From an uncultured Enterobacteriaceae bacterium (GTDB lineage Bacteria; Pseudomonadota; Gammaproteobacteria; Burkholderiales; SG8-39): DNA of 62,742 nucleotides. The stretch lies in the NCBI GenBank assembly GCA_964601155.1, contig CAZRMO010000004.1, positions 1 through 62,742 on the forward strand. The letters are read 5' to 3'. Below are positions 395 through 18,175 of this stretch, piece by piece. The position numbers were made by a program, and so were the translations under genes. The notes beneath the pieces were generated by a model, which worked only from the letters and a program-made list of their open reading frames with translations, had not been told where the DNA came from and made no database searches. Position 1 is the first letter of the stretch; every line of letters starts with the position of its first letter.

Positions 395-752
395 CGTCCG
401 CAGCAGTCTGTCGGTGTTGGGGGGCGTAGCGAGGCGGCACAGGGCGCGGAACGCGCAGCCGCAGCAGGTTCCGCGGCTGCGCGCCGCGCGACGCCAGGCG
501 GGTCAACTCGGCAGCGTGATAATCCGGTACAATACGCCCTCGTTCACGCCGACCGAGGGCGTACTCGCCACCGCCCGATCTCGCCGGCAATGGCGCCCCC
601 TCCGACCTGTACCGAAGCCGTGTTCGCACCCCGTCCGCGCAAGTTACCTCCGCTCAGCAAGCGCTTTTTGACATGAACAAAAACTTCGCTCTCTCCCATG
701 ACTATGTCTCGGTGGAGCGAACCGAATCGTTTGTGAAGGGAATGCGTTCAAA

Positions 753-1271
753 ATGACAGAACCCGCCAAAGGTACCGTACTCGTTGCAATCGACGGTTCG
801 CGCAATTCGATCATGGCGGCTGGCGTCGGCTCGCGCATGGCGCAACTGCTCGGCATGCATGTCGGTCTTCTCAACGTGCTGGATGTGCCGGTACTGAGTT
901 TCTGGGTGGGCGTCGAAGCCCGCCTTAAAGACGACATCCGCGTACAGGCCGAAGCGATGCTCGCCGACATTTCCGAGAAGATCCGGCTCAGTTGTGACGT
1001 AGAGCCGAAGTTCTACATCGCAGACGGCGAGCCGGCGGATGAAATCCGGAAAGTGGTGCGGGCGCATCCCGAAATTATCATGGTGGTAACCGGCCGTGAC
1101 GGCGTGGGCAGCGAAAAGAAAACGGAGTTGTTGCGGGACCGCGCCGGCGATCATCTCGGCGCGAAACTGGCGGATATGCTGCCAGTGCCGGTATTGGTGG
1201 TGCCGCCGGACGTATCCAGATCCATGATCTGCGAATCGCTCGAAAAATACCGCAAAGAGTCCGGTGCGTAG
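753..1271 (+). CDS. Universal stress protein (UspA family)
   Basis: N-terminal VLVAIDGS, GEPADEI, IIMVVTGR, and C-terminal LPVPVLVVP. Confidence 0.85.
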   Translation: MTEPAKGTVLVAIDGSRNSIMAAGVGSRMAQLLGMHVGLLNVLDVPVLSFWVGVEARLKDDIRVQAEAMLADISEKIRLSCDVEPKFYIADGEPADEIRKVVRAHPEIIMVVTGRDGVGSEKKTELLRDRAGDHLGAKLADMLPVPVLVVPPDVSRSMICESLEKYRKESGA

Positions 1272-1339
1272 GGCTGCCGGATTCGCGAATTTTCGGGCTC
1301 ATTAATTCTCTCTCTGTACATTGCGAAGGTTAGTTCAGC

Positions 1340-2281
1340 GTGGAAATATTTCTGCCGATTGCCCACATGGATGTGAACCTGCTCCTGGTTCTCGTGTTCG
1401 GCGTTTCCATCGGCGGCCTTTCCGCTCTGACCGGCGTTGGCGGCGGTTTTCTGCTCACACCGTTGCTGATGATTATAGGCGTACCGCCGCTGGTCGCTGT
1501 GGGTACGACACGCGCAGTGACCGCGGGCAGCGCGGCTGCCGGCAGCTATTCGCACTGGCGCCTTGGCAACATGGACCTGCGTTTTGGGCTTGCCTTGCTG
1601 CTCGGCAGTTGGAGTACTGCCGCCGCCGCCACATACGCATCGCGGATTCTGGAGCGAGGGGGCCACTTCGAGACCATCCTTGTCTTCACCTACATCACAA
1701 TTCTCGGCACCGTTGGCACCGTCACCTTCGTTGAGTCGATACGTTCGGTGTTCCGCGGTTTCACGGCCGCGGCAGCGCCTGGCGCTCCGGCCGCGGCTGC
1801 GCATGCCGCGGCTCCAGCCGCGGCAGAACCGCTCAGCTGGCTGCCCGGACAGATGGACTTCTACGTGGCGCAGCGGCGAATGTCAGTTCTGTTGCCTCTG
1901 CTGCTCGGCGCGTTTATCGGTGTGCTCAACGCGCTCGGCATGGGCGGCGGATTCGTTGCAGTGCCGGCGATGATCTATCTGTTGCGCGTTCCGACCAAGG
2001 TGGCAATCGGCACCTCGCTGTTGCTGATGGTCGCCACCAGCGCGGTCGTGAGCGTGATGCAGGCAGGCATCAATCACTCGCTGGATCCGATATTGGCGCT
2101 GACCTTGATCGTCGGATCATCCCTTGGCGCCCAGTGGGGCGCGCGCATGAGTTCGATCCTGCCGGGCGAGAAGCTGCGCCTGCTTTTGGCGCTGATCCTG
2201 CTGGCCGTTGCAATCAAGTTCTTGTTCGGCTTGCTGCTGACACCTGCCGAGTTGTACAGCTTGGTCGGAGTGGGGCCATGA
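1340..2281 (+). CDS. Sulfite exporter TauE/SafE family membrane protein
   Basis: Two repeats of the G(V/M)GGGF-L/V-x-P motif, AVGT and AIGTSL segments, multiple hydrophobic helices. Confidence 0.88.
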   Translation: MEIFLPIAHMDVNLLLVLVFGVSIGGLSALTGVGGGFLLTPLLMIIGVPPLVAVGTTRAVTAGSAAAGSYSHWRLGNMDLRFGLALLLGSWSTAAAATYASRILERGGHFETILVFTYITILGTVGTVTFVESIRSVFRGFTAAAAPGAPAAAAHAAAPAAAEPLSWLPGQMDFYVAQRRMSVLLPLLLGAFIGVLNALGMGGGFVAVPAMIYLLRVPTKVAIGTSLLLMVATSAVVSVMQAGINHSLDPILALTLIVGSSLGAQWGARMSSILPGEKLRLLLALILLAVAIKFLFGLLLTPAELYSLVGVGP

Positions 2282-3048
2282 GTGTATTGAAGCGCGCCTT
2301 CGTCTGGGGCTTGCTGTTGTGCTGCAGCGCATGGCTGACCGGCGCGCGTGCCGACTCGGGAATGTTGACCGATCTGGCGAGCAGCCACGTCAAGATCACA
2401 ACGGGGTTTACCGGGCAGCATGTATTTGTGTTCGGCAGTACGTCGCGTTCCGGCGACATCGTCATCCGCGTCACGTCGCCGGACGAGTCGGCGGCTTTGT
2501 CGCGCAAGGAGCGGGTCGGGCCGTTCTGGCTCAAGGGCGGCAAACAGCGTGTGGATCATGTGCCGGGGCTGGTGTACCTGCTGAGCAACCGGCCATTGAA
2601 CGAAATCGCCGATCGCTTGGTGCTGGAGCGCCATGGTTTGACCTTCCACTCGAATCTGGCGGCGGCGCAGGTCAGCGGCGGTCCCACGCCAGGATACGAA
2701 GATTGGCAGACCGCGTTCGAACGGCTCAAGCAGAAGCAGGGCCTGTTCCGCAAGCTGGGCAGCGATGTTCGTATCGACGGCGGACGTTTGTTCTCGGCGA
2801 ATTTTCCGCTGCCGGCCACGCTGCCCATCGGAGCCTATCGGCTGGACATCTATGCCTTCCGCAATGGCCGGCTGGTCGCGCATCGTTCTAGCGTCCTGCA
2901 GGTGAACGAGGTCGGTATCGAGCTGTGGCTTTCGCAGGTTGCGCTGGACTATTCGTGGGTGTTCGGTTTGCTGTTCACGCTGCTGGCGGTCGCGCTCGGT
3001 CTGACGCTGAGCATGCTATTGCGCCGCGATCACGGACGCCGCCTCTGA
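2278..3048 (+). CDS. TIGR02186-like conserved transmembrane protein
   Basis: Signal peptide, VKITTGFTG..FVFG, RKERVGPFW, LFSANFPLPATLPIGAY, C-terminal TM helix. ATG overlaps the TauE stop (ATGA), the usual partner context. Confidence 0.72.
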   Translation: MSVLKRAFVWGLLLCCSAWLTGARADSGMLTDLASSHVKITTGFTGQHVFVFGSTSRSGDIVIRVTSPDESAALSRKERVGPFWLKGGKQRVDHVPGLVYLLSNRPLNEIADRLVLERHGLTFHSNLAAAQVSGGPTPGYEDWQTAFERLKQKQGLFRKLGSDVRIDGGRLFSANFPLPATLPIGAYRLDIYAFRNGRLVAHRSSVLQVNEVGIELWLSQVALDYSWVFGLLFTLLAVALGLTLSMLLRRDHGRRL

Positions 3049-3132
3049 CGCGTGCGCGTGCGTTTTCGGCCAGCAGCTGGGTCCCAATGGCGGCCGCCGG
3101 CGCCGTGCGACTGAGCCGGCCTTCGAACGGCT

Positions 3133-4554
3133 CTATTGTGAAGTGGCGATCACCGGGTGGCGCTTCCACAACTGCGTCGCCTGCTCGAATGCGTAGGCCA
3201 GCTGTAGCACGCCGAAATCGTCCTGGTGCCTCCCGACGATCTGCACCCCCACGGGCAAACCTTCCGCGGTAAAGCCGCAGGGCACGGAGACCGCCGGATG
3301 GCCGGTGACGGTGATGAAGTAACAGGACTTCATCCAGTCTATGTAGGTATCCATGGCGACTTCGTTGATCTCGGTGACATACGGCTGGTCCACGTCGAAT
3401 GGCGGCACTTGGTTCACCGGCAGGATCAGAAACTCGTAGCGCTGCATGAAGCTGCGCATGCGTTCATACAGCGCGGTTCTCTTCGATTCCGCCGCACCGA
3501 TGCTGGGACCGGAAAGCTTCCTGCCCGCCTCGATGTTCCACACCACCGTGTCCTTGAGCTGATCGCGGTGGCGGTCGAGCAGTTCGCCGTAAGCCAGCTC
3601 GAACTGCCAGGCGCGCAGGGTCTGGAAGATTTCGTTCGCGTCGGACAGATCGGGCGTCGCCTCCTCGAGCGTGCAGCCGAGCGCGGCGAAGGTCGCGCGC
3701 TGCGACGCCAGCACTGCGGCGACGCGCGCATCCAGCGGCAGTCCGCCTAGGTCGGCGCTCCAGGCGACGCGCACGCCCTTGAAATCGCGCGCGAGCGGCC
3801 GCGAAAACAGGTTGCCCGGTTCGGCAATTGCGATCGGGCTCTTCGCGTCCGGGCCGGCGATGGCGCTCAACATCAGCGCGCAATCGGCTACCGTGCGCGC
3901 CATCGGCCCTTGCACGCCCAGCGTGCTCCAGCCGGTCTTCGCCGGCCAGATCGGCACGCGCCCGGGCGAGGGGCGCAAGCCTACGACATTGCAGAAATTC
4001 GCCGGGCAGCGCAGCGAACCGCCCATGTCGCTGCCGTCGGCCAAAGGCACCATCCCGGCCGCCAGTGCCACCGCCGCGCCGCCGGAGGAGCCGCCGCAGG
4101 TCTTGCTGGTGTCGTAAGGATTGAACGTCTTGCCGAATACCGCATTGAAAGTCTGCGAGCCGGCGCCGAATTCGGGGGTATTGGTCTTGCCTACGGAAAT
4201 CGCCCCCGCCGCCTGCAGCCGGTCCACGATCAGCAAATTCTGCTCGGGAACGAAGTCCTTGAAAATGGGCGAACCGAAGGTGGTGCGCATGCCGCGGGTC
4301 AAGAACAGATCCTTGTGCGCGACCGGCAGACCGTGCAGGGCCCCGAGTACCTCGCCCCGTGCCTGCTTTTCGTCCGCGGCCCTCGCTTGCGCCAGCGCCT
4401 GCTCGGCGTACAGGCTGACGATGGCATTGAGTTTCGGGTTGAGGCGCTCGATTTGCGCCAATGAGGCCTGCATCAGTTCGCGTGCCGACAGTTCCTTACG
4501 CCGGATGCGCTGCGCCAATTCGGTTGCCTGCAGGAAACAGAGTTCATCGCTCAT
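3133..4554 (-). CDS. Amidase signature family enzyme
   Basis: HKDL (Lys), GKTNTPEFG, GGSSGG, GSDMGGSLR (Ser-cisSer-Lys triad). Start placed at MSDEL. Confidence 0.92.
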   Translation of the reverse strand: MSDELCFLQATELAQRIRRKELSARELMQASLAQIERLNPKLNAIVSLYAEQALAQARAADEKQARGEVLGALHGLPVAHKDLFLTRGMRTTFGSPIFKDFVPEQNLLIVDRLQAAGAISVGKTNTPEFGAGSQTFNAVFGKTFNPYDTSKTCGGSSGGAAVALAAGMVPLADGSDMGGSLRCPANFCNVVGLRPSPGRVPIWPAKTGWSTLGVQGPMARTVADCALMLSAIAGPDAKSPIAIAEPGNLFSRPLARDFKGVRVAWSADLGGLPLDARVAAVLASQRATFAALGCTLEEATPDLSDANEIFQTLRAWQFELAYGELLDRHRDQLKDTVVWNIEAGRKLSGPSIGAAESKRTALYERMRSFMQRYEFLILPVNQVPPFDVDQPYVTEINEVAMDTYIDWMKSCYFITVTGHPAVSVPCGFTAEGLPVGVQIVGRHQDDFGVLQLAYAFEQATQLWKRHPVIATSQ

Positions 4555-4656
4555 GGTAAGTGTCCTTGCTCGATTCAAGTCAATTGTAACAACGATCTCG
4601 TGCGCGCTAAGCTGCTTGCGCGGACCATGGCGGGTCCACGGACCCGCCCAGCCGGG

Positions 4657-5565
4657 CTATTTCTGCGGCGCCTGCGCCAGCTCCGCCAATACGTCGCGCA
4701 GCCACTGCTGCGCCGGATCGCGCTGGTTGCGCTCGTGCCACATCTCCCCCACGGTGAATTTTTGCAGTTCGACCGGAGGATCGAAAATGCGCAGCTGTTT
4801 CGCGTAGCCGCGCGCCAGACGCTCGGGCAAGGAACTGATCATGTCGGAGCGGGCGACGATCTCCGGCACCAGAAGAAAATGCGGCACCGTCAGGCGCGCG
4901 TGGCGCTTGCGCCCCCGCGCGGCCAGCGCATTGTCGATATGGGTGCTGAAGCCACTGCCGGGCACCGACACCTGGATATGCTCCAGGCTGCAGAACTCAT
5001 CCAGGGTCAGGCTTGCGCCAACAGCCGGATGATCGCGTCTCACGACCGACACCAGCCGCTCGGTATAGAGCGGCCGCAAATGCAAGCCGGCCGGGGCGTT
5101 TTGCATCCCGGTGATGCAAAGATCGACCTCGCCGCTTTCCATCTGCTTTGCCACCAATTGCAGGTCGATCGACCTTACTCCCAGGCGCACGCCCGGGGCT
5201 TCGTGCTCGAGATAATCGACCAGCCTCGGCAGCAGCGCGTATTCGACGTAGTCCGAGGCCGACAAGGTAAAACTGTGCGCCGCGCGGCCCGCGTCGAATG
5301 CTGCGGGCGGCTGAACGATGGTCTCGATCTCGTCCAGGACCTGTTTTACCGGAGCCAGCAGCTCCAGCGCGCGCGGCGTCGGCAGCATGCCACGCGCGCT
5401 GCGCAACAGCAGAGGATCGCCGAACAGTTCGCGCAGGCGCGCCAGCAACGCGCTCGTGGCGGGCTGCGACAGACGCAGGCGCACCGCGGCGCGCGACACG
5501 CTGCGCTCAGCCAACAGCGCATCCAAGGCGACCAGCAGGTTGAGATCGATATTTCTAATATCCAC
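4657..5565 (-). CDS. LysR family transcriptional regulator (NodD/MexT-like)
   Basis: DLNLLVALDALLAERSVSRAAVRLRLSQPATS HTH followed by a substrate-binding domain. Confidence 0.92.
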   Translation of the reverse strand: MDIRNIDLNLLVALDALLAERSVSRAAVRLRLSQPATSALLARLRELFGDPLLLRSARGMLPTPRALELLAPVKQVLDEIETIVQPPAAFDAGRAAHSFTLSASDYVEYALLPRLVDYLEHEAPGVRLGVRSIDLQLVAKQMESGEVDLCITGMQNAPAGLHLRPLYTERLVSVVRRDHPAVGASLTLDEFCSLEHIQVSVPGSGFSTHIDNALAARGRKRHARLTVPHFLLVPEIVARSDMISSLPERLARGYAKQLRIFDPPVELQKFTVGEMWHERNQRDPAQQWLRDVLAELAQAPQK

Positions 5566-5754
5566 AAGACAGATATATTAAATTCAAACAATCGATTCGA
5601 CAAATAGTTAGCAGGTGTTTAGACTTCGTCTATTATTTAAGTGAAAGCTACCGATAATTTTGGCAGCAAGAGTTTCGCGGGTTCTCCTCCTCCTCTCCCC
5701 CGCGCAGGCAGGGCGGCCGGTAAGCACCGGTTGTCCTGTCTTTTTTATTTTTGC

Positions 5755-6372
5755 CTAGACACCCAGCTGGCGCAACCGCGGCAGGTCCTCCGGCCGGTCC
5801 AGGTCCCACAGCAGCGCCAATTCTCGCCAGCGCCAGTTGCCGCGCGCGAGTCGCGCGCGCGTTTCCTGCATTACCGTCGCCGTGCCCCAGGCAATATCCT
5901 CGAACAGATGCGCCGGCGAGCTGCGCGCCACACCGACGAGCACATAGCCGCCGTCCTCAGCCGGGCCGAACACTGCATCGTTTCCTGCCGCCAGTGCGGC
6001 AGCCGCTTCGCATAGGTAATCCGGCGTCAGGGCCGGGCAGTCGCAGCCTATCAATAGCGCCGGCGAGTCCGACGCCAGCGCGGACTCCAGCGCGCGCGCC
6101 ATGCGCATTCCCAGATCGCCCTCACCCTGGGGCTGCAGACTGACGCCGTGCTTGTCCGCGCAGGACGCAAAAAACGGGTCATCCGGCCCGGGCGCGCACC
6201 ACAGCTCCGGCGTGCCCAGCCTCGCCGCGACCGCCGTGCGCAGCGTGCGCTCTATCAGCCGCCGCTGCAACTCTGCGGCGCCGCTCCCGCCCAATGCCGG
6301 AATCAGGCGTGTCTTCACATGGCCCGGCGTGGGCGCCTTGGCGAAAATCAGGACGCGGCAGTTAATGGCCAC
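5755..6372 (-). CDS. TIGR04282/DUF2064-like nucleotidyl-/glycosyltransferase
   Basis: IFAKAPTPGHVKTRL, QGEGDLGMRM, LIGCDCP, GPAEDGGYVL, WDLDRPED. GTG start overlaps the upstream partner's stop. Confidence 0.8.
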   Translation of the reverse strand: MAINCRVLIFAKAPTPGHVKTRLIPALGGSGAAELQRRLIERTLRTAVAARLGTPELWCAPGPDDPFFASCADKHGVSLQPQGEGDLGMRMARALESALASDSPALLIGCDCPALTPDYLCEAAAALAAGNDAVFGPAEDGGYVLVGVARSSPAHLFEDIAWGTATVMQETRARLARGNWRWRELALLWDLDRPEDLPRLRQLGV

Positions 6373-7051
6373 GCCGCGAATAGGCGCGGGCGAGCCGCGC
6401 CGGCGCCGCGCCGAATGCATACTGCAGGCGCAACCACCACATCAGTGCAATCGTGCGCAACACGCCATCGCTTTCCCAACGGCGCGCCGAAGTGAGGCAG
6501 CGCTCGCGCAGGCACAACGGTGCGGATATGCGGCGCAGGAGCACGCTGATGGCGATATCTTCCATCAAGGCCTGACGGGGATAGCCCCCCAGGGCTTCGA
6601 ACACTTCGCGTCGGACGAAAATGGCCTGATCGCCTGTGCATATGCGCGTCAGCCGGGAACGCAGATTCATCATGGTTTCGACAAGGCGCAGCAATGGATG
6701 GGCGCCCGCAATGCGCACGTCGAAACGGCCCCAGGCGCAATCGCTGCCGGCCAGGCCCTGCAGAATCGAGCGATCGGCCTGCGGCGGCAGGCGCGAATCG
6801 GCGTGCAGGAACAGGAGCACGTCGCCCGCAGCGGCGCGGGCGCCGGCATTCATCTGCTCGGCGCGTCCGGCCGGCGAAGCAACGATCCGGTCGGCCAGAC
6901 CCAGGGCCAGGGCCATGGTCGCATCGCCGGAGCCGCCGTCGGCGACGATAATCTCATGGCCGTCGCGTCGCAAGCCGGCCAAAGACTGCAGGGTAGCAGC
7001 GATAATCGAGGCTTCGTCGAGCGTAGGGATGATGATCGACAGTCTATTCAC
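6362..7051 (-). CDS. TIGR04283-like GT2 glycosyltransferase
   Basis: LSIIIPTLDE, IIVADGGSGD, GRAEQMNAGA, LFLHADS, GDQAIFVRR, MEDIAIS, TSARRW. Confidence 0.85.
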   Translation of the reverse strand: MNRLSIIIPTLDEASIIAATLQSLAGLRRDGHEIIVADGGSGDATMALALGLADRIVASPAGRAEQMNAGARAAAGDVLLFLHADSRLPPQADRSILQGLAGSDCAWGRFDVRIAGAHPLLRLVETMMNLRSRLTRICTGDQAIFVRREVFEALGGYPRQALMEDIAISVLLRRISAPLCLRERCLTSARRWESDGVLRTIALMWWLRLQYAFGAAPARLARAYSRRGH

Positions 7052-7108
7052 TTCGCGCGCCCTGGCAACGCGGTACGCAGTTCCATTCCGGCTTGCGCCA
7101 GCGGCGCG

Positions 7109-9177
<2,069 letters not shown>

Positions 9178-9181
<4 letters not shown>

Positions 9182-9552
9182 CGCGGCTCCTGCTCCAGAC
9201 AACGCCTGATGGCAGCGCGCAACTGCTCCACATCGAAAGGTTTCGCCAGCACTTCGCTTGCGCCTCGGTGCAAGGCGATCGCGCGTGCCTCGTCGTCCAT
9301 GAAGGCGGAGAACAGCAGCACGGGAACACGAGACGTCTGCGGGTTTGCGCGCACAGCCTCCAGCACTGCATAGCCGCCCAGACGCGGCATGACGACGTCG
9401 CAAATAATGAGTTCCGGACGGAATTTCTGCACCAGCGCCAGGCCTTGCATGCCGTCCGCCGCCCACGCGAACTCGTGTCCATCGAGACGCAGCACCTGCT
9501 CCATGTAATCGAGGCTAGCCTGATCATCGTCGATGAGCAATATCCGCGCCAT
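9178..9552 (-). CDS. Single-domain response regulator (CheY-like receiver)
   Basis: ILLIDDD, LIICDVVMP, LFSA, KPF. About 124 aa with no output domain. Its stop overlaps the next gene's start. Confidence 0.88.
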
Positions 9553-9554
9553 GA

Positions 9555-11705
9555 TCAGGCCGCTTGGCGCCTGTCTTCCAGCGGCAGGCACACGCGGATG
9601 CAGGTGCCCGCATCGACTTCGCTGTCGACAGAAATGGTGCCGCCGTGCAGATCCACCGCCTTTTTGGCGATTACCAGCCCGAGGCCCGTACCCTGGCGAT
9701 TGCCGACGTTGGAGGCGCGATAAAAGCTCTCGAACAGGCGCGCCTGATCCGCCGGCGGTATGCCTATGCCTTGGTCGCGCACCTCGATCACCGCCTGCCC
9801 GTCGCGTTCGGCCAGCAGCAAGGACACGACGCTCTCCGGGGGAGAGTATTTCACCGCGTTGGAGAGCAGATTGGCAAGGATGTGCCGCAGCAGTTTTTCA
9901 TCCAGATTCAGGCTGCTGCGCTTGAACTGATGCTCGAACTGAATCACACGCTGCTTGGCCACGCCCCCGCGCAATTCCTCCACCACCTTGTGGCACAAAT
10001 CGCGCAGATCCACCGGCTTTGGATCGAATTGCAGGGCGCCCGCTTCGGCTTTGCCTATGATCAGCACGTCTTCGATCAGCGCGTTCATCCGTTTCACGGC
10101 GCCTTGGATCCCGGACAGCATTTTCAGTTTGTCTTCGGCGGACAATTTTTCGGAGTAATGTTCCAGCAACTCTGCGGAGGACAGTATGGTCGCCAGCGGC
10201 GTGCGCAGCTCGTGCGAGGCGATGGAAACGAACTTGGATTTCATCTCCGACAGCTCTTTCTCGCGCTGCAGGGCGGCGAGCAACTCCACCTCGGCGCGCT
10301 TGCGCTGGGTTATGTCGACGCTGGTTCCGGTCATGCGCAGCGCGCCGCCGTCATCCGCGTGCTCGACCACGCGGCCGCGGCTTAGCACCCAGACCCAGTC
10401 TGCATCGGCCATTTTCAGGCGATACTCGATGCGGTATAGCGGACGCAGGCCGCTGATGCAGTCGGCCAGTGCCTGGCGCACCGCATCGGCGTCCTCCGGA
10501 TGCACCATCAGCGCCATTTCATCCAGCCCAACATACTGCTCGCGCGGCTCGCTGCCCGTCATCTGCGCCAGCGCGGCGTCCAGATAAAGCGTGCCGCGCC
10601 TGGCGTCCCACTCCCAGATGGAAATAGCCGACGACTGCATCGCCAGATCGAGCCTCTCCTTGGTCTGCCGCAAGGCCGCCTCGGCACGTTTGCGTTCGGT
10701 AATATCGGCCATGCCGATGATAATTCCGTCCTGCGGCTTGGCCGGGTCGACAGCGCGGCTGTCGGTGAACACCCAGATCGAACTGCCGTCCTTCCTGCGC
10801 AGCAGCACTTCGGCCGCATAGCTTTCGCCTCGCGCGAGAATCCCGTAGGCGCGGCTGCCCGCTTGCGTCAAATCCTCTTCCGACGCGAACCAGTTGTTGG
10901 TGGATTGCCCGGCGATTTCATCTACGGCATAACCGAGGATCTCGGCGAAGCGCTGGTTGCCTTTCACCACGGCGCCTTGGCTGACAAACGCAATGCCGAC
11001 GGCCGCGGTGTCGAAAATCAGCTGCTGCTCGCTTAGCGCTGCGGTCAGGGATTTTTCGGCAACGCGCAGCTTTTTCAGCAGCACGGTGTTCTCGTGGCCG
11101 TAAGCCAGGGTTTCCATCAGCGCCAGGTGGTTGGACAGGTACAATCCCAGCAGCACGCTGGTGAACACCAGCATCAGCAAGCCGGTGGAGGCGTTGAGTC
11201 CGCCGCCGAAGCTGAACAGCATCGCGACCATGGGCGCCAGTATTGGCAGGATGAAGCTGGTAAAAGCTTTGGGGCTGGGCGCCAGCGAGGGCGGCAGGCC
11301 CATGGCGATGCTGCTGATCAAGAAGGTGACCGAAATCTGCTGCAGCGAGCTCGCTTCAGTTCCGACAAACATCAGCGCCAGGCCCCAGCCCGCCCCGATC
11401 AGCGCGCTGGCCATGCAAAAATAATTTTCCCATTTCGCGGCATCCTCCGCCGGCGGCTGAACACGGCGATATACCCGAGCCATCGCGTAGCGCACCACGC
11501 TTGCCACGCCGAGCCAGACGAACCAGCTCACTATCAGGCTGACGCCGATATAGCCCCACAAGGCAAATGCGGTGATGCCCGCGGCCACCATAATGATGGG
11601 CACATCGGTGCCCGACAGCCGGTAGAGCATCGAAACGCGCTCGGGCAGGTACTCGAGCGAGGCCATGGAGGCCAGCCGAACGCGCAATTTCTCCAGTAAA
11701 TGCAC
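9555..11705 (-). CDS. Membrane-anchored PAS-domain sensor histidine kinase
   Basis: About 5-6 N-terminal TM helices, two PAS/PAC-like segments, H-box SHELRTPL, N-box NLLSNAVKY, DQGIGI and GTGLGL. Confidence 0.92.
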   Translation of the reverse strand: MHLLEKLRVRLASMASLEYLPERVSMLYRLSGTDVPIIMVAAGITAFALWGYIGVSLIVSWFVWLGVASVVRYAMARVYRRVQPPAEDAAKWENYFCMASALIGAGWGLALMFVGTEASSLQQISVTFLISSIAMGLPPSLAPSPKAFTSFILPILAPMVAMLFSFGGGLNASTGLLMLVFTSVLLGLYLSNHLALMETLAYGHENTVLLKKLRVAEKSLTAALSEQQLIFDTAAVGIAFVSQGAVVKGNQRFAEILGYAVDEIAGQSTNNWFASEEDLTQAGSRAYGILARGESYAAEVLLRRKDGSSIWVFTDSRAVDPAKPQDGIIIGMADITERKRAEAALRQTKERLDLAMQSSAISIWEWDARRGTLYLDAALAQMTGSEPREQYVGLDEMALMVHPEDADAVRQALADCISGLRPLYRIEYRLKMADADWVWVLSRGRVVEHADDGGALRMTGTSVDITQRKRAEVELLAALQREKELSEMKSKFVSIASHELRTPLATILSSAELLEHYSEKLSAEDKLKMLSGIQGAVKRMNALIEDVLIIGKAEAGALQFDPKPVDLRDLCHKVVEELRGGVAKQRVIQFEHQFKRSSLNLDEKLLRHILANLLSNAVKYSPPESVVSLLLAERDGQAVIEVRDQGIGIPPADQARLFESFYRASNVGNRQGTGLGLVIAKKAVDLHGGTISVDSEVDAGTCIRVCLPLEDRRQAA

Positions 11706-12001
11706 TTGGGGATCCTTCCTCTGCGCAGTTTCGAAGCCGTCCGCGCGGTGGTGTTTATAATTCGGCCATTGAGGCCAATTATTCTACTATGTTTAATGAC
11801 TTGTCCACCCGATGCGGATCTACAATATTAGCCGGCCGAGACGCCCTCTCCTAGCGCACGCGCAGGCGTCTTCGGCCCGCTGCCGCATATTTCGGCCGCC
11901 GCATGAGCGAAGGACGGCTTATTGTCGGCCTCTCGTAAGGTGTCGAGGCTCTGCACGCGCTCTGCGGTACAATTTCTGGACATAATTTTCACTGGAAGCG
12001 C

Positions 12002-12583
12002 ATGGGTCATCGTCTCAGCAAAATCTACACGCGAACCGGCGACACCGGCGACACCGGCCTAGGCGACGGCTCGCGCGTGCCCAAGGATAGCCCGCGCGTG
12101 CATGCGCTGGGCGAAATCGATGAATTGAATTCAGCGATCGGCCTGCTGCTTGCGGAAGGACTCCCCGACGACATTCGCTCGGCGCTCGCCGCCATTCAGC
12201 ACGACCTGTTCGACCTGGGAGGTGAGGTCTGCATTCCCGGGAATGCCGGCATGAGCGAAAGCCGAGTTGCTCGCCTGGAAACGCTGCTGGACGAGTTCAA
12301 CCGGAGCCTGCCGCCGCTGAAGGAATTCATTTTGCCGGGAGGAACACGCGCGGCGAGCCTGGCGCACCTCGCACGCACGGTGTGCCGCCGCGCCGAGCGC
12401 ACCCTGATTTCGCTCGCGCGCGCCGAACCGGTCGGAACCGCGGCCCGAAAATATCTGAATCGTCTGTCCGACCTGCTGTTCGTTTTGGGCCGGACGCTGA
12501 ACCGCGCTGGCGGCGGCAACGATGTATTGTGGCAACCAGCAGGGAAATCGACGGAAAAATCGAAGCGCGAGCGAAAAAAATGA
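12002..12583 (+). CDS. ATP:cob(I)alamin adenosyltransferase (PduO/MMAB type)
   Basis: KIYTRTGDTGDTGL, LGEIDELNS, QHDLFDLG, EFILPGG, RTVCRRAER, YLNRLSDLLF. Confidence 0.92.
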   Translation: MGHRLSKIYTRTGDTGDTGLGDGSRVPKDSPRVHALGEIDELNSAIGLLLAEGLPDDIRSALAAIQHDLFDLGGEVCIPGNAGMSESRVARLETLLDEFNRSLPPLKEFILPGGTRAASLAHLARTVCRRAERTLISLARAEPVGTAARKYLNRLSDLLFVLGRTLNRAGGGNDVLWQPAGKSTEKSKRERKK

Positions 12584-12636
12584 CGGCGACGAAGGCCGCC
12601 TAGAATCATAGGACGATATGCCGGCAGCTGCCCGCC

Positions 12637-13236
12637 CTAACTGCCCTCCACGTCCATCAGACTTACCAGCTTGATGCTGGTCTGGCGCAAGCGCTGTGAC
12701 AGCATCAACACCAGTTCCATCAGGATTTTTGCGCCAAGAATCGGGTGTTCCAGAATAATGCGCGCCAGATTCTCGCGCGACAGAACCGCAAACACGCAAG
12801 GCTCCGCGGCGACACAAGTCGCGAAGCGCGGTTCGCCGTCTATCATGGACATCTCGCCCAGCGTCTTGCCGGCAGTGACCGCGGCGATGAGCTTGGGCAT
12901 GTTCCAGCGATCTTGTTTGAATACTTCCACGCTGCCCTCGATCATCAGCAGCATGAAATCACCTTGTTCTCCTTCGTGGATGATCTCCTGGCCCGGCTCG
13001 CCGTGGTAGACATGCATGAAGTGGCTCATCAGCCGGATTTCCGCCATGTTGAAATTTTCGAACAGCGGCGAATAGCTGATCATGCGATGCATTTTCACGG
13101 CAAACTGGGTCGCATCGCCGAGATATTCCAGGTGCGCCAGGTGATCGTCTCTGCCGTCTTCAGCCATAAGTTGCCAATCCGATACAGACGCATCGGGTGG
13201 GGCCGGGAAGGACCCGCCTGCGAGCATAGCGTCCAC
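12637..13236 (-). CDS. Stand-alone cyclic nucleotide-binding domain protein
   Basis: IIHEGEQGDFM and LGEMSMIDGEPRFATC (phosphate-binding cassette). The protein ends after the C-helix with no Crp HTH. Confidence 0.8.
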   Translation of the reverse strand: MDAMLAGGSFPAPPDASVSDWQLMAEDGRDDHLAHLEYLGDATQFAVKMHRMISYSPLFENFNMAEIRLMSHFMHVYHGEPGQEIIHEGEQGDFMLLMIEGSVEVFKQDRWNMPKLIAAVTAGKTLGEMSMIDGEPRFATCVAAEPCVFAVLSRENLARIILEHPILGAKILMELVLMLSQRLRQTSIKLVSLMDVEGS

Positions 13237-13376
13237 CGATTATGCCGAAACCGAGGGCTAAGCTCAAATCAAGTTTCCAAGCCTCCTCAAGCCGGATCAG
13301 CCGGGATGCGACGCGAAGCCGTGCGGCGTCTGCGCTTTGCGCGCAGGTTCGGGCAAATGCAAGGAAACGCTAGCAG

Positions 13377-13455
13377 GCTGTTGAAAAACGCTACCCGCAC
13401 GGCAAAAAAGGAGCGTCATCCTCCCGCTCTCAGAAGGGGAGCGCTTTTCAATAGC
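13377..13455. mobile_element. Possible MITE or IS-end remnant with 16-bp imperfect terminal inverted repeats
   Basis: gctgttgaaaaacgct (13377-13392) versus the reverse complement of agcgcttttcaatagc (13440-13455) matches at 14/16. CTAG lies at 13370-13373. No transposase. Confidence 0.35.
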
Positions 13456-13470
13456 GCTGATTTGGGGAAT

Positions 13471-13500
13471 ATACGCCCCGTAGGAAGTCCCCTTTGGGGA
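13471..13500 (+). repeat. 30-nt dispersed intergenic repeat, copy 1
   Basis: atacgccccgtaggaagtcccctttgggga is 28/30 identical to the reverse complement of 52298-52327. Confidence 0.75.
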
Positions 13501-13519
13501 AAAGGCGGCTAGGATGGGA

Positions 13520-13543
13520 AAGGAAGGGGCCCGTCCCTTCCTT
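13520..13543. terminator. Hairpin downstream of aroG (possible terminator)
   Basis: aaggaaggg-gcccgt-cccttcctt forms a 9-bp stem about 20 nt after the aroG stop. The U-tract is poor. Confidence 0.35.
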
Positions 13544-13563
13544 AGCCCCCTTTTGACAATCAG

Positions 13564-14634
13564 CTAGCCTTCGGCCTGGTGCACCAGGCGACGCTTGCGC
13601 ACCGCCTCGGCCAAGCGCTCGAGCATTTTTACACTCTCATTCCAGCCGATGCAGGCATCGGTGATGGATACGCCGTAAGCGAGCGGCTTGCCCGGCACCA
13701 GGTCCTGGCGCCCGGGCTGCAGATGCGATTCCGCCATCACGCCGATAATGCGGTCGTCGCCCGCGCCGATCTGACCGGCGACGTCCGCGCAAACCTCCAT
13801 CTGGCGCTGAAAGTCCTTGGAGCTGTTGGCATGGGAAAAATCGATCATCAGGCGTTGTTCCAGTCCGGCCGCCGCGAGCTGCTTCGCCGCCGCGCCCACG
13901 CTAGCCGCTTCGTAATTCGGCTTGGGTCCGCCGCGCAGGATCACGTGGCAATCTTCGTTGCCCCTGGTGGAGACGATGGCCGAATGCCCGCCTTTGGTGA
14001 CCGAAAGAAAATGGTGCGGCTGGCGCGAAGTCTTGATCGCATCCACGGCAATGCGGATATTGCCATCGGTGCCATTCTTGAAGCCGACCGGACAGGACAG
14101 CCCCGAGGCGAGTTCGCGGTGAACCTGGGATTCGGTGGTGCGTGCACCTATGGCGCCCCAGCTCACCAAGTCGGCAATGTACTGCGGCGTGATCATGTCC
14201 AGGTACTCGACGCCGGCAGGCACGCCCAGCTCGTTGATATCAAGCAGCACGCTGCGCGCCAGGCGCAGGCCCTCGTTGATGCGGAACGTACCGTCCAGGT
14301 ACGGGTCGTTGACGAGGCCTTTCCAACCCACGGTGGTGCGCGGCTTCTCGAAGTAGACGCGCATCACTATGAGCAGGTCGGCCGCGTGCCTGACCTTCTC
14401 CTGCGCCAGTCGCCGTGCGTACTCCAGCGCTGATTTCGGGTCGTGGATAGAGCACGGGCCGATGATCACCAGCAGCCGGTCGTCTGCCGCGTGCAAGATG
14501 CCGTGTATGCCCTGGCGCGCCTCGTAGGTGACGCGCTCTGCCGCCTCCGACACGGGAAACTCGCGGATCGCGTGCGAGGGCGGCGCGAGCTCTTTGATTT
14601 CGCGGATACGAACGTCGTCAACCCTGTGGGTCAT
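13564..14634 (-). CDS. aroG: Class I-alpha DAHP synthase (3-deoxy-7-phosphoheptulonate synthase)
   Basis: IGPCSIHD, RVYFEKPRTTVGWKGL, GAIGARTTESQVHRELASG, GFKNGTDG, DFSHANS, SITDACI. ATG at 14634 follows an AAGGAG Shine-Dalgarno. Which isoenzyme (aroG/F/H) cannot be determined from sequence. Confidence 0.93.
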   Translation of the reverse strand: MTHRVDDVRIREIKELAPPSHAIREFPVSEAAERVTYEARQGIHGILHAADDRLLVIIGPCSIHDPKSALEYARRLAQEKVRHAADLLIVMRVYFEKPRTTVGWKGLVNDPYLDGTFRINEGLRLARSVLLDINELGVPAGVEYLDMITPQYIADLVSWGAIGARTTESQVHRELASGLSCPVGFKNGTDGNIRIAVDAIKTSRQPHHFLSVTKGGHSAIVSTRGNEDCHVILRGGPKPNYEAASVGAAAKQLAAAGLEQRLMIDFSHANSSKDFQRQMEVCADVAGQIGAGDDRIIGVMAESHLQPGRQDLVPGKPLAYGVSITDACIGWNESVKMLERLAEAVRKRRLVHQAEG

Positions 14635-14742
14635 GATTTCTCCTTGATACCGGTAAGCCCGCAGGCGGTCGGTCGCGTCTGCTTGCGTCGGCGGAATAGT
14701 TGCTGGTGCAATAGCGGTCATGGTCGTAGCTTGGTCTCGGGT

Positions 14743-14780
14743 AAAAAAAAACCGCCAGGCTGTAGGCGCTGGCGGTTTTT
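14743..14780 (-). terminator. Intrinsic terminator of the aroG attenuator
   Basis: mRNA AAAAA-CCGCCAG-(10-nt loop)-CUGGCGG-UUUUUUUUU (nine U), between the leader ORF and aroG. Confidence 0.9.
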
Positions 14781-14799
14781 CGGGATACTTGGGTGCGAC

Positions 14800-14871
14800 T
14801 TAGCTCAAATCCTCCGCCAGCGGCTGGGGAAAGCCATAAAAGTAAAACCAAAAGGCGTAGGCGCTGTTCAT
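14800..14871 (-). CDS. Aromatic-amino-acid leader peptide MNSAYAFWFYFYGFPQPLAEDLS (attenuator leader)
   Basis: Hand translation: ATG AAC AGC GCC TAC GCC TTT TGG TTT TAC TTT TAT GGC TTT ... AGC TAA. 8 of 23 codons are Phe/Tyr/Trp, all in codons 5-14. Too short for the supplied ORF track. Confidence 0.85.
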   Translation of the reverse strand: MNSAYAFWFYFYGFPQPLAEDLS

Positions 14872-15012
14872 TTCAGAGGTATTCCAGTAGCGATTCAATC
14901 ACGAATCCAACTCGTTTGGCAAGTAGGGCATACCCGAGTCGCTTCGCATAGGCCCGCAACTGGACGGGATTCACTTCCACACCACGACTGCCCAGCGGTC
15001 AGTCGCAGGTGT

Positions 15013-15330
15013 TCAAAGGCTTTCGATCTTTCCTTCCTCGTTGTTCACCAATACCGGCGTATCGACGTAGACGACATCGGGATCGCTTCCGTACTTGCCT
15101 TTGACGAAAGTTTTCCATTCCGGCGTATACATACGCTCGGCAGCCTGCCGCGACTCCCACAGGTAGATTCCACCGGCGCGCAGGCCATCCTCGCTGAGGA
15201 AATAGTTCTTGCGCAGCAGCCCCGGCAGCTTCAGGTACTTGGGCGCGGTGGTCTGGAACGTCGCGGTCGCCTGCTCCAGCGTCTGTTTCTGCGGCAGCCT
15301 GAAACTGACAATTGCAATGACTTTGCTCAT
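15013..15330 (-). CDS. YdhR-like putative monooxygenase (dimeric alpha/beta barrel)
   Basis: PGLLRKNYF, AGGIYLWES..AA pattern, 105 aa. Confidence 0.65.
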   Translation of the reverse strand: MSKVIAIVSFRLPQKQTLEQATATFQTTAPKYLKLPGLLRKNYFLSEDGLRAGGIYLWESRQAAERMYTPEWKTFVKGKYGSDPDVVYVDTPVLVNNEEGKIESL

Positions 15331-15396
15331 CCTGCCTCCTTGGAATCCCTAACGAACGAGAGGATAGCTCCCCAGGTCGATATTTGCGGCGGAGTC

Positions 15397-18009
15397 TTAG
15401 CTTGAAAGTCTTTGCCGGACCCATGCCTGCACCGAGGCCAGGGCGGCCGGCAGCTTGGCTGGCTCGCTGCCGCCCGCTTGTGCCATGTCGGCGCGTCCAC
15501 CGCCCTTGCCGCCGACCTGCTGCGCGACAAAATTGACCAGTTCTCCCGCTCTTAGCTTTGACGTGAGATCGGGTGTGACCCCCGCGATCAGGCTTGCCTT
15601 GCCGCCCTCGGCCGAGGCAAGCACGATGACGGCGGACTTGAGCTTGTCCTTCAGCTTGTCCATGGTCTCGCGCAGGGTCTTGGCATCGGCACCGTCCAGC
15701 GGCACGGCGAGCACCTTTACGCCGCTTACCTCGAGCGCCTGCGCTGCCAGATCGTCACCCTGCGCCGACGCCACTTTCGATTTCAGGCGCGCGAGCTCCT
15801 TCTCCAGCGCCCTTGCGCCTTCGATGATCTGGGCGATCTTCTGGCTCAGCTCCTGCGGCTGTGCCTTGAGCACGCCCGCAGCCTCGGCCAGGCGCGCCTC
15901 CTGCTCCTGCACCCACGCCAATGCCCCGTCTGCCGTGACCGCCTCGACCCGGCGTATGCCCGCAGCCACGCCCGACTCCGACACGATCTTGAAAAAGCCG
16001 ATGTCGCCGGTGCGGCGCACATGGGTCCCGCCGCACAACTCGGTGGAAAACTCGCCCATGCCGATCACGCGCACTTCGTCGCCGTATTTCTCGCCGAACA
16101 GCGCCATCGCGCCCGCCTTGATCGCATCGTCGTATTTCATCACCCTCACTGAGATCTCCGTATTGTGGCGGATCTCCCGGTTGACCAGATCCTCGACCTG
16201 GCGCAGCTGCGCGTCGCTTATCGGCTCGTTGTGCGAGAAATCGAAGCGCGTGCGCTGGGCATCTACGAGCGAGCCCTTCTGCTGCACGTGCGCGCCGAGC
16301 ACCCTGCGCAGCGCTGCGTGCATCAGGTGGGTGGCCGAATGGTTCCATGCGGCGCTCGCGCGCGCCGCGCAGTCCACCGCGGCCATCACGCGCTCGCCCA
16401 CACGCAGCCGCCCGGCTTTGAGCTCGCCTTTGTGACCGAACACCTCTGCCTGGATTTTTTGCGTATCTTCGACGGTGAAACTGCCATTTGCGCCGGCGAG
16501 CTCCCCGCGGTCGCCCACTTGGCCACCTGACTCGGCGTAGAAAGGCGTGCGGTCGAGCACGACCACTGCGGATTCGCCGGCGCCGATCTCCTCGACCGAC
16601 GCGCCTTCGCGGTACAGCGCCGCCACCGTCGCTTCGAGCGTGAGCGTGTCGTATCCGTGGAACTCGGTCGGCCGACCCGAGTACTCCACGCCCGCGGTCA
16701 CGGTGAACCTGGAAGCGGCGCGGGCGCGCTCGCGCTGGCGCTGCATCGCCGCCTCGAAGCCGGCATAGTCGACCCGCACGTCGCGCTCGCGCGCGATGTC
16801 CGCGGTCAGATCGACCGGAAAGCCGAATGTGTCGTAGAGCTGGAACACGGTCTCGCCGTCGAGCATCTTGTCCTCGCGCGTGAGCGCGCCTTCGAGGACT
16901 TTCATGCCGTGTTCGAGGGTCTCGGCGAAGCGCTCTTCTTCCGTCTTGAGCACGCGCGCCACGCGATCCTTCGCCTTCACTAGCTCGGGATAGGCTTCGC
17001 CCATGACGCGCGCCAGTTCCTCGACCAGGCGGAAAAAGAACGGCTCGGTCTGCCCGAGCTTGTAGCCATGGCGGATGGCGCGGCGGATGATGCGCCGAAG
17101 CACATAGCCGCGGCCCTCGTTGCCCGGAATCACGCCATCGACAATCAGAAATGAAGTTGCGCGGATGTGATCAGCGATAACCTTGAGCGAGTTACTCGCC
17201 AGGTCCTTGACGTGGGTCTCGCGCGCGGCGGCTTTGATCAACTCCTGGAACAGGTCGATGTCGTAGTTGGAATGCACCCCCTGCAGCACGGCGGCGATGC
17301 GCTCCAGCCCCATGCCGGTATCCACCGAGGGTTTGGGCAGGGGATGCAGCTTGCCCGCGTCGTCGCGGTTGTACTGCATGAACACCAGGTTCCAGATTTC
17401 GATATAGCGGTCGCCGTCCGCGTCGGGTGAGCCGGGTGGACCGCCCGCGATCCCGGGACCGTGATCGTAGAAGATCTCGCTGCACGGTCCGCACGGACCG
17501 GTTTCGCCCATTTGCCAGAAGTTGTCCGAACCGCCGCCGGGCTTGTCGCCGATGCGCGCGATGCGCGCTTTTGGCACCTTGATCTCGCCAGCCCAAATGT
17601 CATAGGCCTCGTCGTCGGTCTGGTAGACCGTCACCCACAACTTGTCCTTGGGCAGCCGGTACACATCGGTGAGCAGGTCCCAGGCATAGTGGATGGCGTC
17701 ACGCTTGAAATAGTCGCCGAATGAAAAATTACCCAGCATCTCGAAGAAAGTGTGGTGGCGCGCGGTATAGCCGACATTCTCCAGATCGTTATGCTTGCCA
17801 CCGGCGCGCACGCTGCGCTGCGAAGTGGCTGCGCGCTTGTAGGGGCGCTGTTCCTTGCCGAGAAACACGTCCTTGAACTGCACCATGCCCGAGTTGGTGA
17901 ACAGCAGAGTCGGATCGTTGCCCGGCACCAGCGGGCTGGAGGCAACCACGGCATGCCCGCGCTGGGCGAAAAATTCCAGGAACTTGCTGCGTATCTCTGC
18001 TGACTTCAT
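15397..18009 (-). CDS. alaS: Alanine--tRNA ligase
   Basis: [70 protein letters not shown]. Confidence 0.98.
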
Positions 18010-18175
18010 AGTTTCGCTTCGGGCCGGGCGCAAGGCACCCGCAGTTCCAGCTGTCCTCGGGTAAAAGATTGAATTTTCGCCTGAATCGGGCGCGCATGCA
18101 AATCCGCGCTCGCACCGTGCCAAGCATCCCCTGGGGCGGACCGCGCGCGGCGCACGCATCTGCCCGCAGGCCTGT

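Follow-up and report, generated by a model that had tools for sequence, protein, structure and literature searches.

The 62,742-nt stretch of DNA analysed here (contig CAZRMO010000004.1 of an uncultured bacterium affiliated with the Burkholderiales; referred to at its full length as the window) carries on its minus strand aroG, encoding a 3-deoxy-D-arabino-heptulosonate 7-phosphate (DAHP) synthase for entry into the shikimate pathway. The aroG gene is preceded by an unannotated, short open reading frame (ORF) rich in codons for aromatic amino acids and by an intrinsic terminator. This arrangement raises the question whether the intergenic region represents a ribosome-mediated (leader-peptide) transcription attenuator of aroG and, if so, which charged tRNAs it reads. 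The region combines (i) a short ORF before aroG, (ii) a cluster of codons for the end products of the pathway, (iii) an intrinsic terminator and (iv) an antiterminator that could be masked by a translating ribosome. Judged from sequence comparison and predicted folding, such an attenuator is very likely (probability roughly 0.88).

Leader ORF and aromatic codon cluster

The leader and its proposed regulatory codons have the following positions:

14871-14800, minus strand: leader ORF of 23 codons plus UAA, product MNSAYAFWFYFYGFPQPLAEDLS (strand reading and ORF list)
14859-14830, minus strand: regulatory codons 5-14, UAC GCC UUU UGG UUU UAC UUU UAU GGC UUU (Y.FWFYFY.F)

The ORF extends from an ATG at 14871 to a TAA at 14802-14800, ends 165 nt upstream of the aroG ATG at 14634 and lacks a gene call in the source metagenomes. 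Eight of the ten codons 5-14 specify aromatic amino acids (4 Phe, 3 Tyr and 1 Trp), the same packing that had been noted in the original prediction, whose coordinates agree with the strand reading throughout. Among the 125,426 ten-codon stretches contained in the six frames of the whole window, exactly one harbours eight aromatic codons, while the next-best unrelated candidate among the 2,355 short ORFs of the window reaches six. Since this stretch is the single one of its kind and the background share of aromatic codons in the genes of the window amounts to 6.2 %, the cluster is not a product of chance. All four Phe codons of the leader (14853-14830) are UUU, a codon accounting for 23 % of the Phe codons in the 34 long genes of the window, and the leaders of relatives likewise prefer UUU and UAU. 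This bias may slow decoding or hold the region unstructured.

Alternative RNA structures between leader and aroG

Segments of the transcript that can pair in mutually exclusive ways are located within and downstream of the leader ORF:

14836-14822, minus strand: region 1, 5' arm of a local hairpin (-14.4 kcal/mol) sequestering region 2, overlaps codons 12-17
14822-14814, minus strand: region 2, antiterminator strand CGCUGGCGG, within codons 17-19 (P-L-A)
14780-14767, minus strand: region 3, A-tract plus CCGCCAGCG, pairs with region 2 or, as 5' arm of the terminator, with region 4
14758-14752, minus strand: region 4, CUGGCGG, 3' arm of the terminator
14751-14743, minus strand: U9 tract completing the intrinsic terminator, where the attenuated transcript is predicted to end
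14812-14809, minus strand: GGAU, strand of an auxiliary antiterminator helix seen on folding the transcript cut before region 4
14786-14783, minus strand: AUCC, pairs with GGAU at 14812-14809

The antiterminator (2:3) is formed by 9 bp between CGCUGGCGG and CCGCCAGCG (14775-14767), so that the complementarity originally claimed between 14814-14822 and the 5' arm of the terminator at 14767-14775 is fully borne out. The terminator (3:4) consists of CCGCCAG (14775-14769) and CUGGCGG (14758-14752), followed by U9. RNAfold energies in the window are -20.2 kcal/mol for the terminator, -20.9 kcal/mol for the 2:3 structure and -14.4 kcal/mol for the local 1:2 hairpin. The sequence pattern of the terminator occurs once in the window at an expectation of 0.13. 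A consensus promoter/terminator scan of the window detected neither a leader promoter nor this terminator, the latter because its outer loop exceeds the 8-nt limit of the tool. The best local 1:2 hairpin pairs 14836-14822 with 14818-14801, its 3' arm thus extending beyond region 2 to 14801. An alternative fold involving UCCCCAG (14824-14830) had been proposed before; a hairpin of this kind is predicted by folding, with the proposed register being only approximately correct.

The auxiliary helix GGAU/AUCC has possible counterparts in relatives, where a purine-rich run after region 2 (AGAAA, UUGAU, UGAG) can pair with a pyrimidine-rich run (UUUCU, AUCAA, CUCA) situated just before the A-tract of the terminator. 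Apparent compensatory changes with shifting registers (columns 68-71 and 138-141 of the leader alignment described below) weakly suggest that this helix would lengthen the antiterminator.

Conservation upstream of aroG

An AroG protein scan (one genome per species) yielded 80 loci with identities of up to 73 %, the upstream DNA of which was searched for short ATG-initiated ORFs rich in Phe, Tyr and Trp codons, RNA information not being used. Such an ORF followed by a terminator is located 160-280 nt upstream of aroG in 38 of the 80 loci, and one additional leader (L019) is truncated by the contig. The carriers belong to Burkholderiaceae, Oxalobacteraceae, Alcaligenaceae, Comamonadaceae, Bradyrhizobium, Devosia and Xanthomonadales, with the following leader peptides as examples:

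Paraburkholderia / Caballeronia / Burkholderia: MSAKFYFYFFWHLRPLADREG
Janthinobacterium: MFARHFFTAYFYFSNSNPKAVE
Uncultured betaproteobacterium (L009): MNRSFAFFWFFHGFLPLAEGRDRRC
Polaromonas: MTSAKFYFAYFWFSSATGGREIFA
Bradyrhizobium: MITVATSYFWYFSYDSSLAAGGSRSI
Devosia: MNLRAAYSYWYFSTGSRWQPKGAV
Dyella: MILTSTRYYFWFYGYPMPLAEVGARS
A Lysobacteraceae metagenome-assembled genome (MAG): MNLFSVRYWFWFYYGFRSHWRKG

All 37 relatives in the alignment have T-runs of 5-9. Upstream of the leader, the gene content varies among the loci (TldD-like, MsrB, membrane protein, alaS), while the linkage of the leader with aroG stays constant, indicating that the element belongs to aroG and not to the respective upstream gene. 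The original prediction had suggested inspecting aroG orthologues for conserved ORFs rich in Phe, Tyr and Trp codons and for covarying stems, and both were found; the element is not peculiar to a single betaproteobacterium, as it also occurs in alpha- and gammaproteobacteria.

These findings bear directly on the simplest alternative, i.e., a coincidence in which the hairpin merely terminates transcription of the alaS / ydhR-like genes located upstream, the aromatic reading frame having arisen by chance. Strand reading and the terminator scan revealed no other terminator between the stop of the ydhR-like gene (15013) and the leader, and the attenuator may therefore also block read-through from upstream, as the coincidence would have it. 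However, ORF, antiterminator and terminator jointly accompany aroG behind unrelated upstream genes in three proteobacterial classes, an aromatic ORF is likewise found in 113 of the 118 loci selected by structure (among the matches listed; see below), and the cluster is one in 125,426 within the window. The coincidence reading is thus refuted by the conservation data, its remaining probability being negligible.

Within the 80-locus set, the loci of Rhodocyclaceae, Methylophilaceae, Chitinimonas, Neisseria, Erwinia and Dickeya yielded no convincing leader ORF starting with ATG. In one Dickeya locus (L078), the DNA close to aroG includes an aromatic-rich stretch along with a T-run, but no ATG-initiated ORF rich in Phe, Tyr and Trp codons. 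Six Methylophilaceae loci (L047, L049, L057, L066, L067 and L073) display an apparent pheA-hisC-aroG operon, coding for the C-terminus of prephenate dehydratase, a hisC-like aminotransferase and AroG, with no aromatic leader directly before aroG. Trp-rich stretches upstream of aroG in this family were rejected as leaders, as they lie off-frame inside hisC.

In alpha- and gammaproteobacterial relatives, a -10-like hexamer (TATATG, TACAAC, TACAGT, TATCAA, TAGTAT and others) ends 6-9 nt before the ATG of the leader (L064, L065, L068 and L072 of Bradyrhizobium; L054 and L062 of Devosia; L074, L075, L080, L035, L015 and L038), accompanied in Bradyrhizobium and Devosia by a TTGACA-like -35 element. 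This short distance suggests leaderless mRNAs, from which the leader peptide may be translated in these lineages. Burkholderia and Oxalobacteraceae have 5' untranslated regions (UTRs) of 35-45 nt devoid of an obvious Shine-Dalgarno sequence.

Covariation and constraint at the RNA level

The 38 leaders were aligned, and helix statistics were calculated over 36 distinct sequences. Three segments, CUGGCGG within the ORF, CCGCCAG, and CUGGCGG followed by the U-tract, are nearly invariant across this alignment. The terminator helix is 96 % paired (slid controls 16-57 %), with four of nine pairs changed on both sides; the compensatory changes comprise seven of A-U to G-C, two of C-G to U-A and another two of A-U to G-C. 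The antiterminator helix is 80 % paired (slid controls 23-51 %), again with four pairs changed on both sides. Joint covariation of all three segments is apparent on inspection in Polaromonas (CCGGCGG / CCGCCGG / CCGGCGG) and in Formosimonas (AGCGGUU / AACCGCU / AGCGGUU), and in Bradyrhizobium the same G-C pair extends both helices. RNAalifold applied to the 38-sequence alignment recovered the terminator as consensus.

Most lineages read the in-ORF CUGGCGG as P-L-A; in Devosia it encodes R-W-Q, in Massilia P-W-R and in the Lysobacteraceae MAG H-W-R. Its use in three reading frames implies that the constraint acts on the RNA; since the frame differs among lineages, the conserved 'PLAE' is a by-product of this constraint and not a peptide motif.

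The unusual invariance of the sequence core across classes could alternatively reflect a conserved product, i.e., a hydrophobic small peptide functioning in its own right or the attenuated ~140-nt RNA acting in trans in the manner of rnTrpL/peTrpL, with attenuation being secondary. Precedent for such activities in trans of an attenuator RNA and its leader peptide is provided by Sinorhizobium meliloti (PMC6614838; PMC7298713). However, length and sequence of the aroG leader peptides vary freely outside the aromatic run and their C-terminal parts are read in different frames, and the invariance is explained by the need of three mutually complementary segments to change together. Moreover, a role in trans would add to attenuation rather than replace it. 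A product acting in trans in place of attenuation is accordingly regarded as highly unlikely.

Occurrence in metagenomes

Independently of coding content, metagenome contigs were scanned with the RNA core alone (CTGGCGG N30-60 CCGCCAG N3-12 CTGGCGGTTTTT), the pattern being met in at least 120 loci. Among the matches listed, to which the counts in this paragraph refer, at least five of the ten codons just upstream of the first CUGGCGG are aromatic in 113 of 118 loci with enough upstream DNA. The aroG gene follows in 89 of 96 loci with at least 300 nt of downstream sequence, beginning 8-160 nt after the U-tract. The leader starts with ATG in 92 cases and with GTG at the homologous position in nine. 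The distance between the end of the stop codon and CUGGCGG has a median of 14 nt (range 14-29 nt) and is 14 nt in the window.

Some matches depart from this scheme. Four of them (L126, L177, L199 and L200) represent paired unrelated terminators; in L195 the N-terminus of AroG is still present, and in L100 aroG is broken across two frames. A low-GC locus (L118; Ga0081455_10000001, minus strand, ~637-712) combines a similar leader rich in Tyr, Trp and Phe (MNKLYVAFAYWFTDSRSGGLFRVF) with CUGGCGG / CCGCCAG / CUGGCGG-U; the gene located ~240 nt downstream in place of aroG, beginning with MTKPTVLTGIRANNDLTLGNYFGALLPMV, looks like one for a tryptophanyl-tRNA synthetase.

Two loci are particularly close to the window, their AroG proteins being 94 % (L117, leader MNRAYAFWFYFYGFPQPLAEDLS) and 88 % (L133, leader including SRTYAFWFYFFGFSQPLAEELS) identical to that of the window. 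In the alignment of the three, leader and attenuator are nearly invariant, while the DNA upstream of ~14925 and much of the spacer before aroG have diverged. The few changes are synonymous (UAU to UAC), convert Tyr to Phe or fall within the loop of the terminator.

The same observations allow a third alternative to be judged, according to which a protein or a small-molecule ligand (TRAP-like or riboswitch-like) sets the choice of the terminator and the ORF is untranslated. It could draw on the weak ribosome-binding site of the leader and on the conservation of an A-rich, UCC-containing spacer before the terminator. Against it stand the conservation of ATG or GTG as start, the constant distance of 14 nt from region 2 to the stop and the persistence of aromatic codons through synonymous and Tyr-to-Phe changes. 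A structured aptamer-like domain is likewise not apparent, with RNAalifold returning the terminator alone and Rfam no match. Such ligand control is therefore given only a very slight chance.

Modelled ribosome masking and proposed mechanism

For modelling ribosome positions, the transcript of the window was cut at 14760 and the mRNA masked up to 10 nt past the A-site codon. Under these conditions, the 2:3 structure forms with the A site on any of codons 5-14, which include all eight aromatic codons; once codon 15 is reached, region 2 lies under the ribosome and the structure no longer forms. The same masking of region 2 applies to a ribosome positioned on the UAA. Across the 38 loci, transcripts cut before the 3' arm of the terminator have the antiterminator core in their minimum-free-energy fold without exception, with all five core pairs in 35 of them; mean energies are -24.4 kcal/mol for the folds of the cut transcripts vs. 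-16.1 kcal/mol for the terminators.

The following sequence of events is proposed. Transcription would start ~12-15 nt upstream of the leader AUG, and translation of the leader (23 codons) by a ribosome would accompany the transcription of the following ~120 nt by RNA polymerase. If Phe-tRNA and Tyr-tRNA (perhaps also Trp-tRNA) are well charged, the ribosome would reach the UAA and mask region 2 (14822-14814), since the stop codon ends 14 nt past CUGGCGG. Region 3 would then be free to pair with region 4, forming the CCGCCAG/CUGGCGG-U9 terminator, and the transcript would end near 14743. At low charging, the ribosome would stall within codons 5-14 and leave region 2 exposed, allowing it to pair with region 3 (9 bp plus the small auxiliary helix) ahead of the synthesis of region 4. 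Formation of the terminator would thereby be prevented, RNA polymerase would read into aroG, and entry into the shikimate pathway would be raised.

The core of what had been predicted, a translated leader with competing 2:3 and 3:4 structures ahead of the DAHP synthase gene, is strongly supported by the comparative evidence. Several observations nevertheless weigh against it. (i) Even if the ribosome-covered part is masked, the complete leader invariably folds into the terminator at equilibrium, which means that the switch must be kinetic; the E. coli trp attenuator is likewise kinetic, its terminator being thermodynamically favoured. (ii) The truncated transcript prefers the 2:3 structure also in the ribosome-free state. 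(iii) Termination of untranslated leaders would therefore hinge, in terms of these models, on a 1:2 hairpin lacking statistical support. This hairpin is absent from the RNAalifold consensus of the 38 sequences, which comprises the terminator alone and thus neither supports nor excludes it; the GGCGG core pairs with an upstream segment in 107 local folds of 132 distinct leaders, at energies not clearly better than those of shuffled sequences (mean z -0.66). (iv) The metagenome loci add no evidence of covariation, because they were selected by the invariant core. (v) The Shine-Dalgarno sequence of the leader is poor, with a weak GGA 11 nt upstream of the start, and the candidate promoter described below stays under the threshold of the consensus scan. 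(vi) The case for attenuation is built on sequence and folding, in a carrier known from metagenomes only, its AroG sequence occurring solely in those of the JGI. From the 1:2 / 2:3 / 3:4 layout originally envisaged, the 2:3 and 3:4 structures are thus backed by covariation, while the 1:2 hairpin is not established as a feature of the family.

Amino acids possibly sensed by the leader

The original prediction had assumed that stalling at any of the three types of aromatic codons would relieve termination, integrating the charging of three tRNAs. The masking folds agree in so far as a stall at any of codons 5-14 frees the 2:3 structure. Equal integration of Phe, Tyr and Trp is not established: Phe dominates across the family, and the window leader contains a lone UGG.

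One may rather consider that the same attenuator operates in practice as a sensor of Phe (or of Phe and Tyr), to which the lone Trp codon contributes little or nothing. In the 113 leaders among the matches listed, Phe, Tyr and Trp codons occur in a ratio of 568:164:53, any Trp codon being present in 52 of them, and the leaders of Oxalobacteraceae mostly have no Trp codon in the aromatic cluster. The single UGG of the window is codon 8, with 25 nt separating it from region 2 further downstream; stalling at this codon would protect the mRNA to ~14838 only and leave the 1:2 hairpin intact, so that the UGG would count only if this hairpin is kinetically unimportant. Codons 10-14 (Y, F, Y,., F), by comparison, are ideally positioned for stalling. 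Judged by its scores, the DAHP synthase under control fits the Phe-sensitive AroG type best. In addition, the mixed F-Y-F leader AroR of Corynebacterium glutamicum responds to limitation of Phe and not to availability of Tyr, as summarized in PMC11802643.

On the other hand, a Trp codon recurs within the cluster in Burkholderia, Bradyrhizobium, Devosia and Xanthomonadales, often near region 2, and a kinetically unimportant 1:2 hairpin would permit a stall at any of codons 5-14 to free the 2:3 structure. Tyr accounts for three of the eight aromatic codons in the window leader and is well placed (codons 10 and 12). Weighing these points, restriction to Phe, or to Phe and Tyr, is a serious candidate that falls just short of even odds.

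Promoter, aroG and neighbouring genes

Further features assigned in the vicinity of the attenuator are:

14922-14917, minus strand: candidate -35 element TTGCCA; cTTGCCAa unchanged in the window, L117 and L133, with unalignable flanks
14901-14893, minus strand: candidate extended -10 element TGaTTGAAT; gTGATTGAAT unchanged in the window, L117 and L133
14634-13564, minus strand: aroG, class I-alpha DAHP synthase of 356 amino acids, the regulated gene

The candidate -10 element is placed 18 nt after the -35 element and predicts a transcription start at ~14886-14883, corresponding to a 5' UTR of ~12-15 nt. The sequence cTTGCCA recurs upstream of the leader in many Burkholderiales loci, and TTGCCA/TGaTTGAAT may represent the leader promoter.

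AroG of the window reaches 577 bits with the NCBIfam AroG equivalog (cut-off 568). Its ATG at 14634 is preceded by AAGGAGA, this ribosome-binding site and ATG being conserved in L117 and L133, and homologues align from residue 1 of the 356-amino-acid form. The gene call in the source metagenomes comprises 385 amino acids from an ATG at 14721, i.e., 22 nt after the U-tract of the terminator, and this ATG is absent in L133. The true start of aroG is thus probably the ATG at 14634, the call being 29 codons too long.

The gene order in the window is alaS, ydhR-like gene, leader, aroG and a gene for a cyclic nucleoside monophosphate (cNMP)-binding protein (12637-18159, minus strand). The order alaS-leader-aroG-cNMP-binding gene is common to part of a large uncultured soil clade with AroG proteins of ~64-66 % identity (e.g., L086, L092, L115, L120, L130 and L173), the leaders of which are nearly pure in Phe (e.g., MTRRFFGFFFYFPCHLAEGTG and MTRWFYGFFFFFPRPLAEGNG). 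Among the matches listed (at least 120 loci in total), 32 have alaS on the upstream side and 32 the cNMP-binding gene on the downstream side; apart from the window itself, the ydhR-like gene occurs only in its closest relative, L117. Across the whole 62.7-kb window (1-62742), neither a tRNA gene nor an Rfam family at gathering score was detected.

Database status and implications

The Rfam 15 models Phe_leader (RF01859) and Trp_leader (RF00513), proposed at the outset for comparison, match neither the window region (E up to 10) nor nine relatives from seven lineages (E up to 1). Sub-threshold matches to other Rfam models align with the terminator only (Thr_leader, RF00506, 23 bits at a gathering score of 55; Leu_leader, 25 bits at 50), and at permissive thresholds RNAI was matched at the level of terminator similarity as well. 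Seven leader peptides of different lineages match no NCBIfam or Pfam family (E up to 10), and nine of ten leader peptides are absent from a collection of 15 billion proteins, in which the tenth is labelled 'hypothetical protein'. No description of a proteobacterial aroG leader was found in the searched full-text literature, although an earlier in silico prediction by comparative genomics is possible. The initial suspicion of an undescribed element is therefore uncontradicted by Rfam, NCBIfam, Pfam and the searched literature.

The class of mechanism is a textbook one and, as such, not surprising; what the comparisons point to is, in effect, a new and widespread family that is apparently uncatalogued. 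It may tentatively be regarded, with a chance slightly below one half, as a single ancient family defined by the triple CUGGCGG/CCGCCAG core, distributed over alpha-, beta- and gammaproteobacteria including the soil clade, reading two to three aromatic tRNAs and in part translated from leaderless mRNAs. The element suggests that tRNA charging sets the entry of carbon into the aromatic pathway as a whole in numerous Proteobacteria associated with soil or plants, among them Burkholderia/Paraburkholderia, Janthinobacterium, Oxalobacter, Bradyrhizobium, Devosia and Xanthomonadales. The currently unannotated element could easily be added to Rfam and to genome annotation, would be a natural target for de-regulation in engineered strains producing aromatics, and offers a clean natural test of how the order and mix of codons decide the amino-acid response of a multivalent attenuator.

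Comparison with known systems

Attenuation is generally taught as acting on the terminal aromatic branches (trp, pheA). E. coli pheL-pheA resembles the aroG leader in placing a short ORF that contains a series of Phe codons ahead of a gene for aromatic biosynthesis, together with an intrinsic terminator and hairpins forming alternatively as 2:3 or 3:4; pheL differs in acting on the Phe-specific branch, not on the common entry step, and in containing Phe codons only. With E. coli trpL-trpEDCBA, the aroG leader would share the 1:2 / 2:3 / 3:4 design (its own 1:2 hairpin being a candidate), the masking of region 2 by a ribosome at the stop codon and the kinetic switch. However, trpL has two adjacent Trp codons inside region 1, whereas the window leader has one UGG upstream of region 1. 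Reading of several tRNAs of one pathway by one leader is known from thrL (Thr and Ile) and ilvL/ilvGMEDA (Leu, Val and Ile), which respond to other amino acids and control other genes than those considered here.

The closest tested analogue is aroR-aroF of C. glutamicum, in which the leader peptide controls transcription of a DAHP synthase operon by attenuation (Mentz 2013, PMC4046766; PMC11802643). It has in common with the aroG leader mixed aromatic codons (Phe-Tyr-Phe), the logic of ribosome stalling and the same target step, and is distinguished by its actinobacterial origin, the presence of only three regulatory codons and the lack of a Trp codon. Limitation of Phe enhanced transcription, while availability of Tyr was without effect (Neshat 2014, as summarized in PMC11802643). 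The reviews on aroR consulted report no relation to the CUGGCGG/CCGCCAG core, and the likeness is accordingly taken as a functional analogy only.

In Proteobacteria, a review of regulons describes control of DAHP synthase via TyrR and TrpR only (PMC5343134). Acting on aroF, aroG and aroH of Enterobacterales, these regulators serve the same goal, i.e., matching DAHP synthase to the supply of aromatic amino acids (PMC5343134); the aroG loci of Erwinia and Dickeya in the 80-locus set are among those that have no ATG-initiated leader ORF rich in Phe, Tyr and Trp codons. If the reading as a single ancient family applies, control of DAHP synthase by tRNA charging would represent a major proteobacterial alternative to TyrR/TrpR: the latter are DNA-binding repressors sensing the free amino acids, whereas the aroG leader would sense the charging of the corresponding tRNAs.

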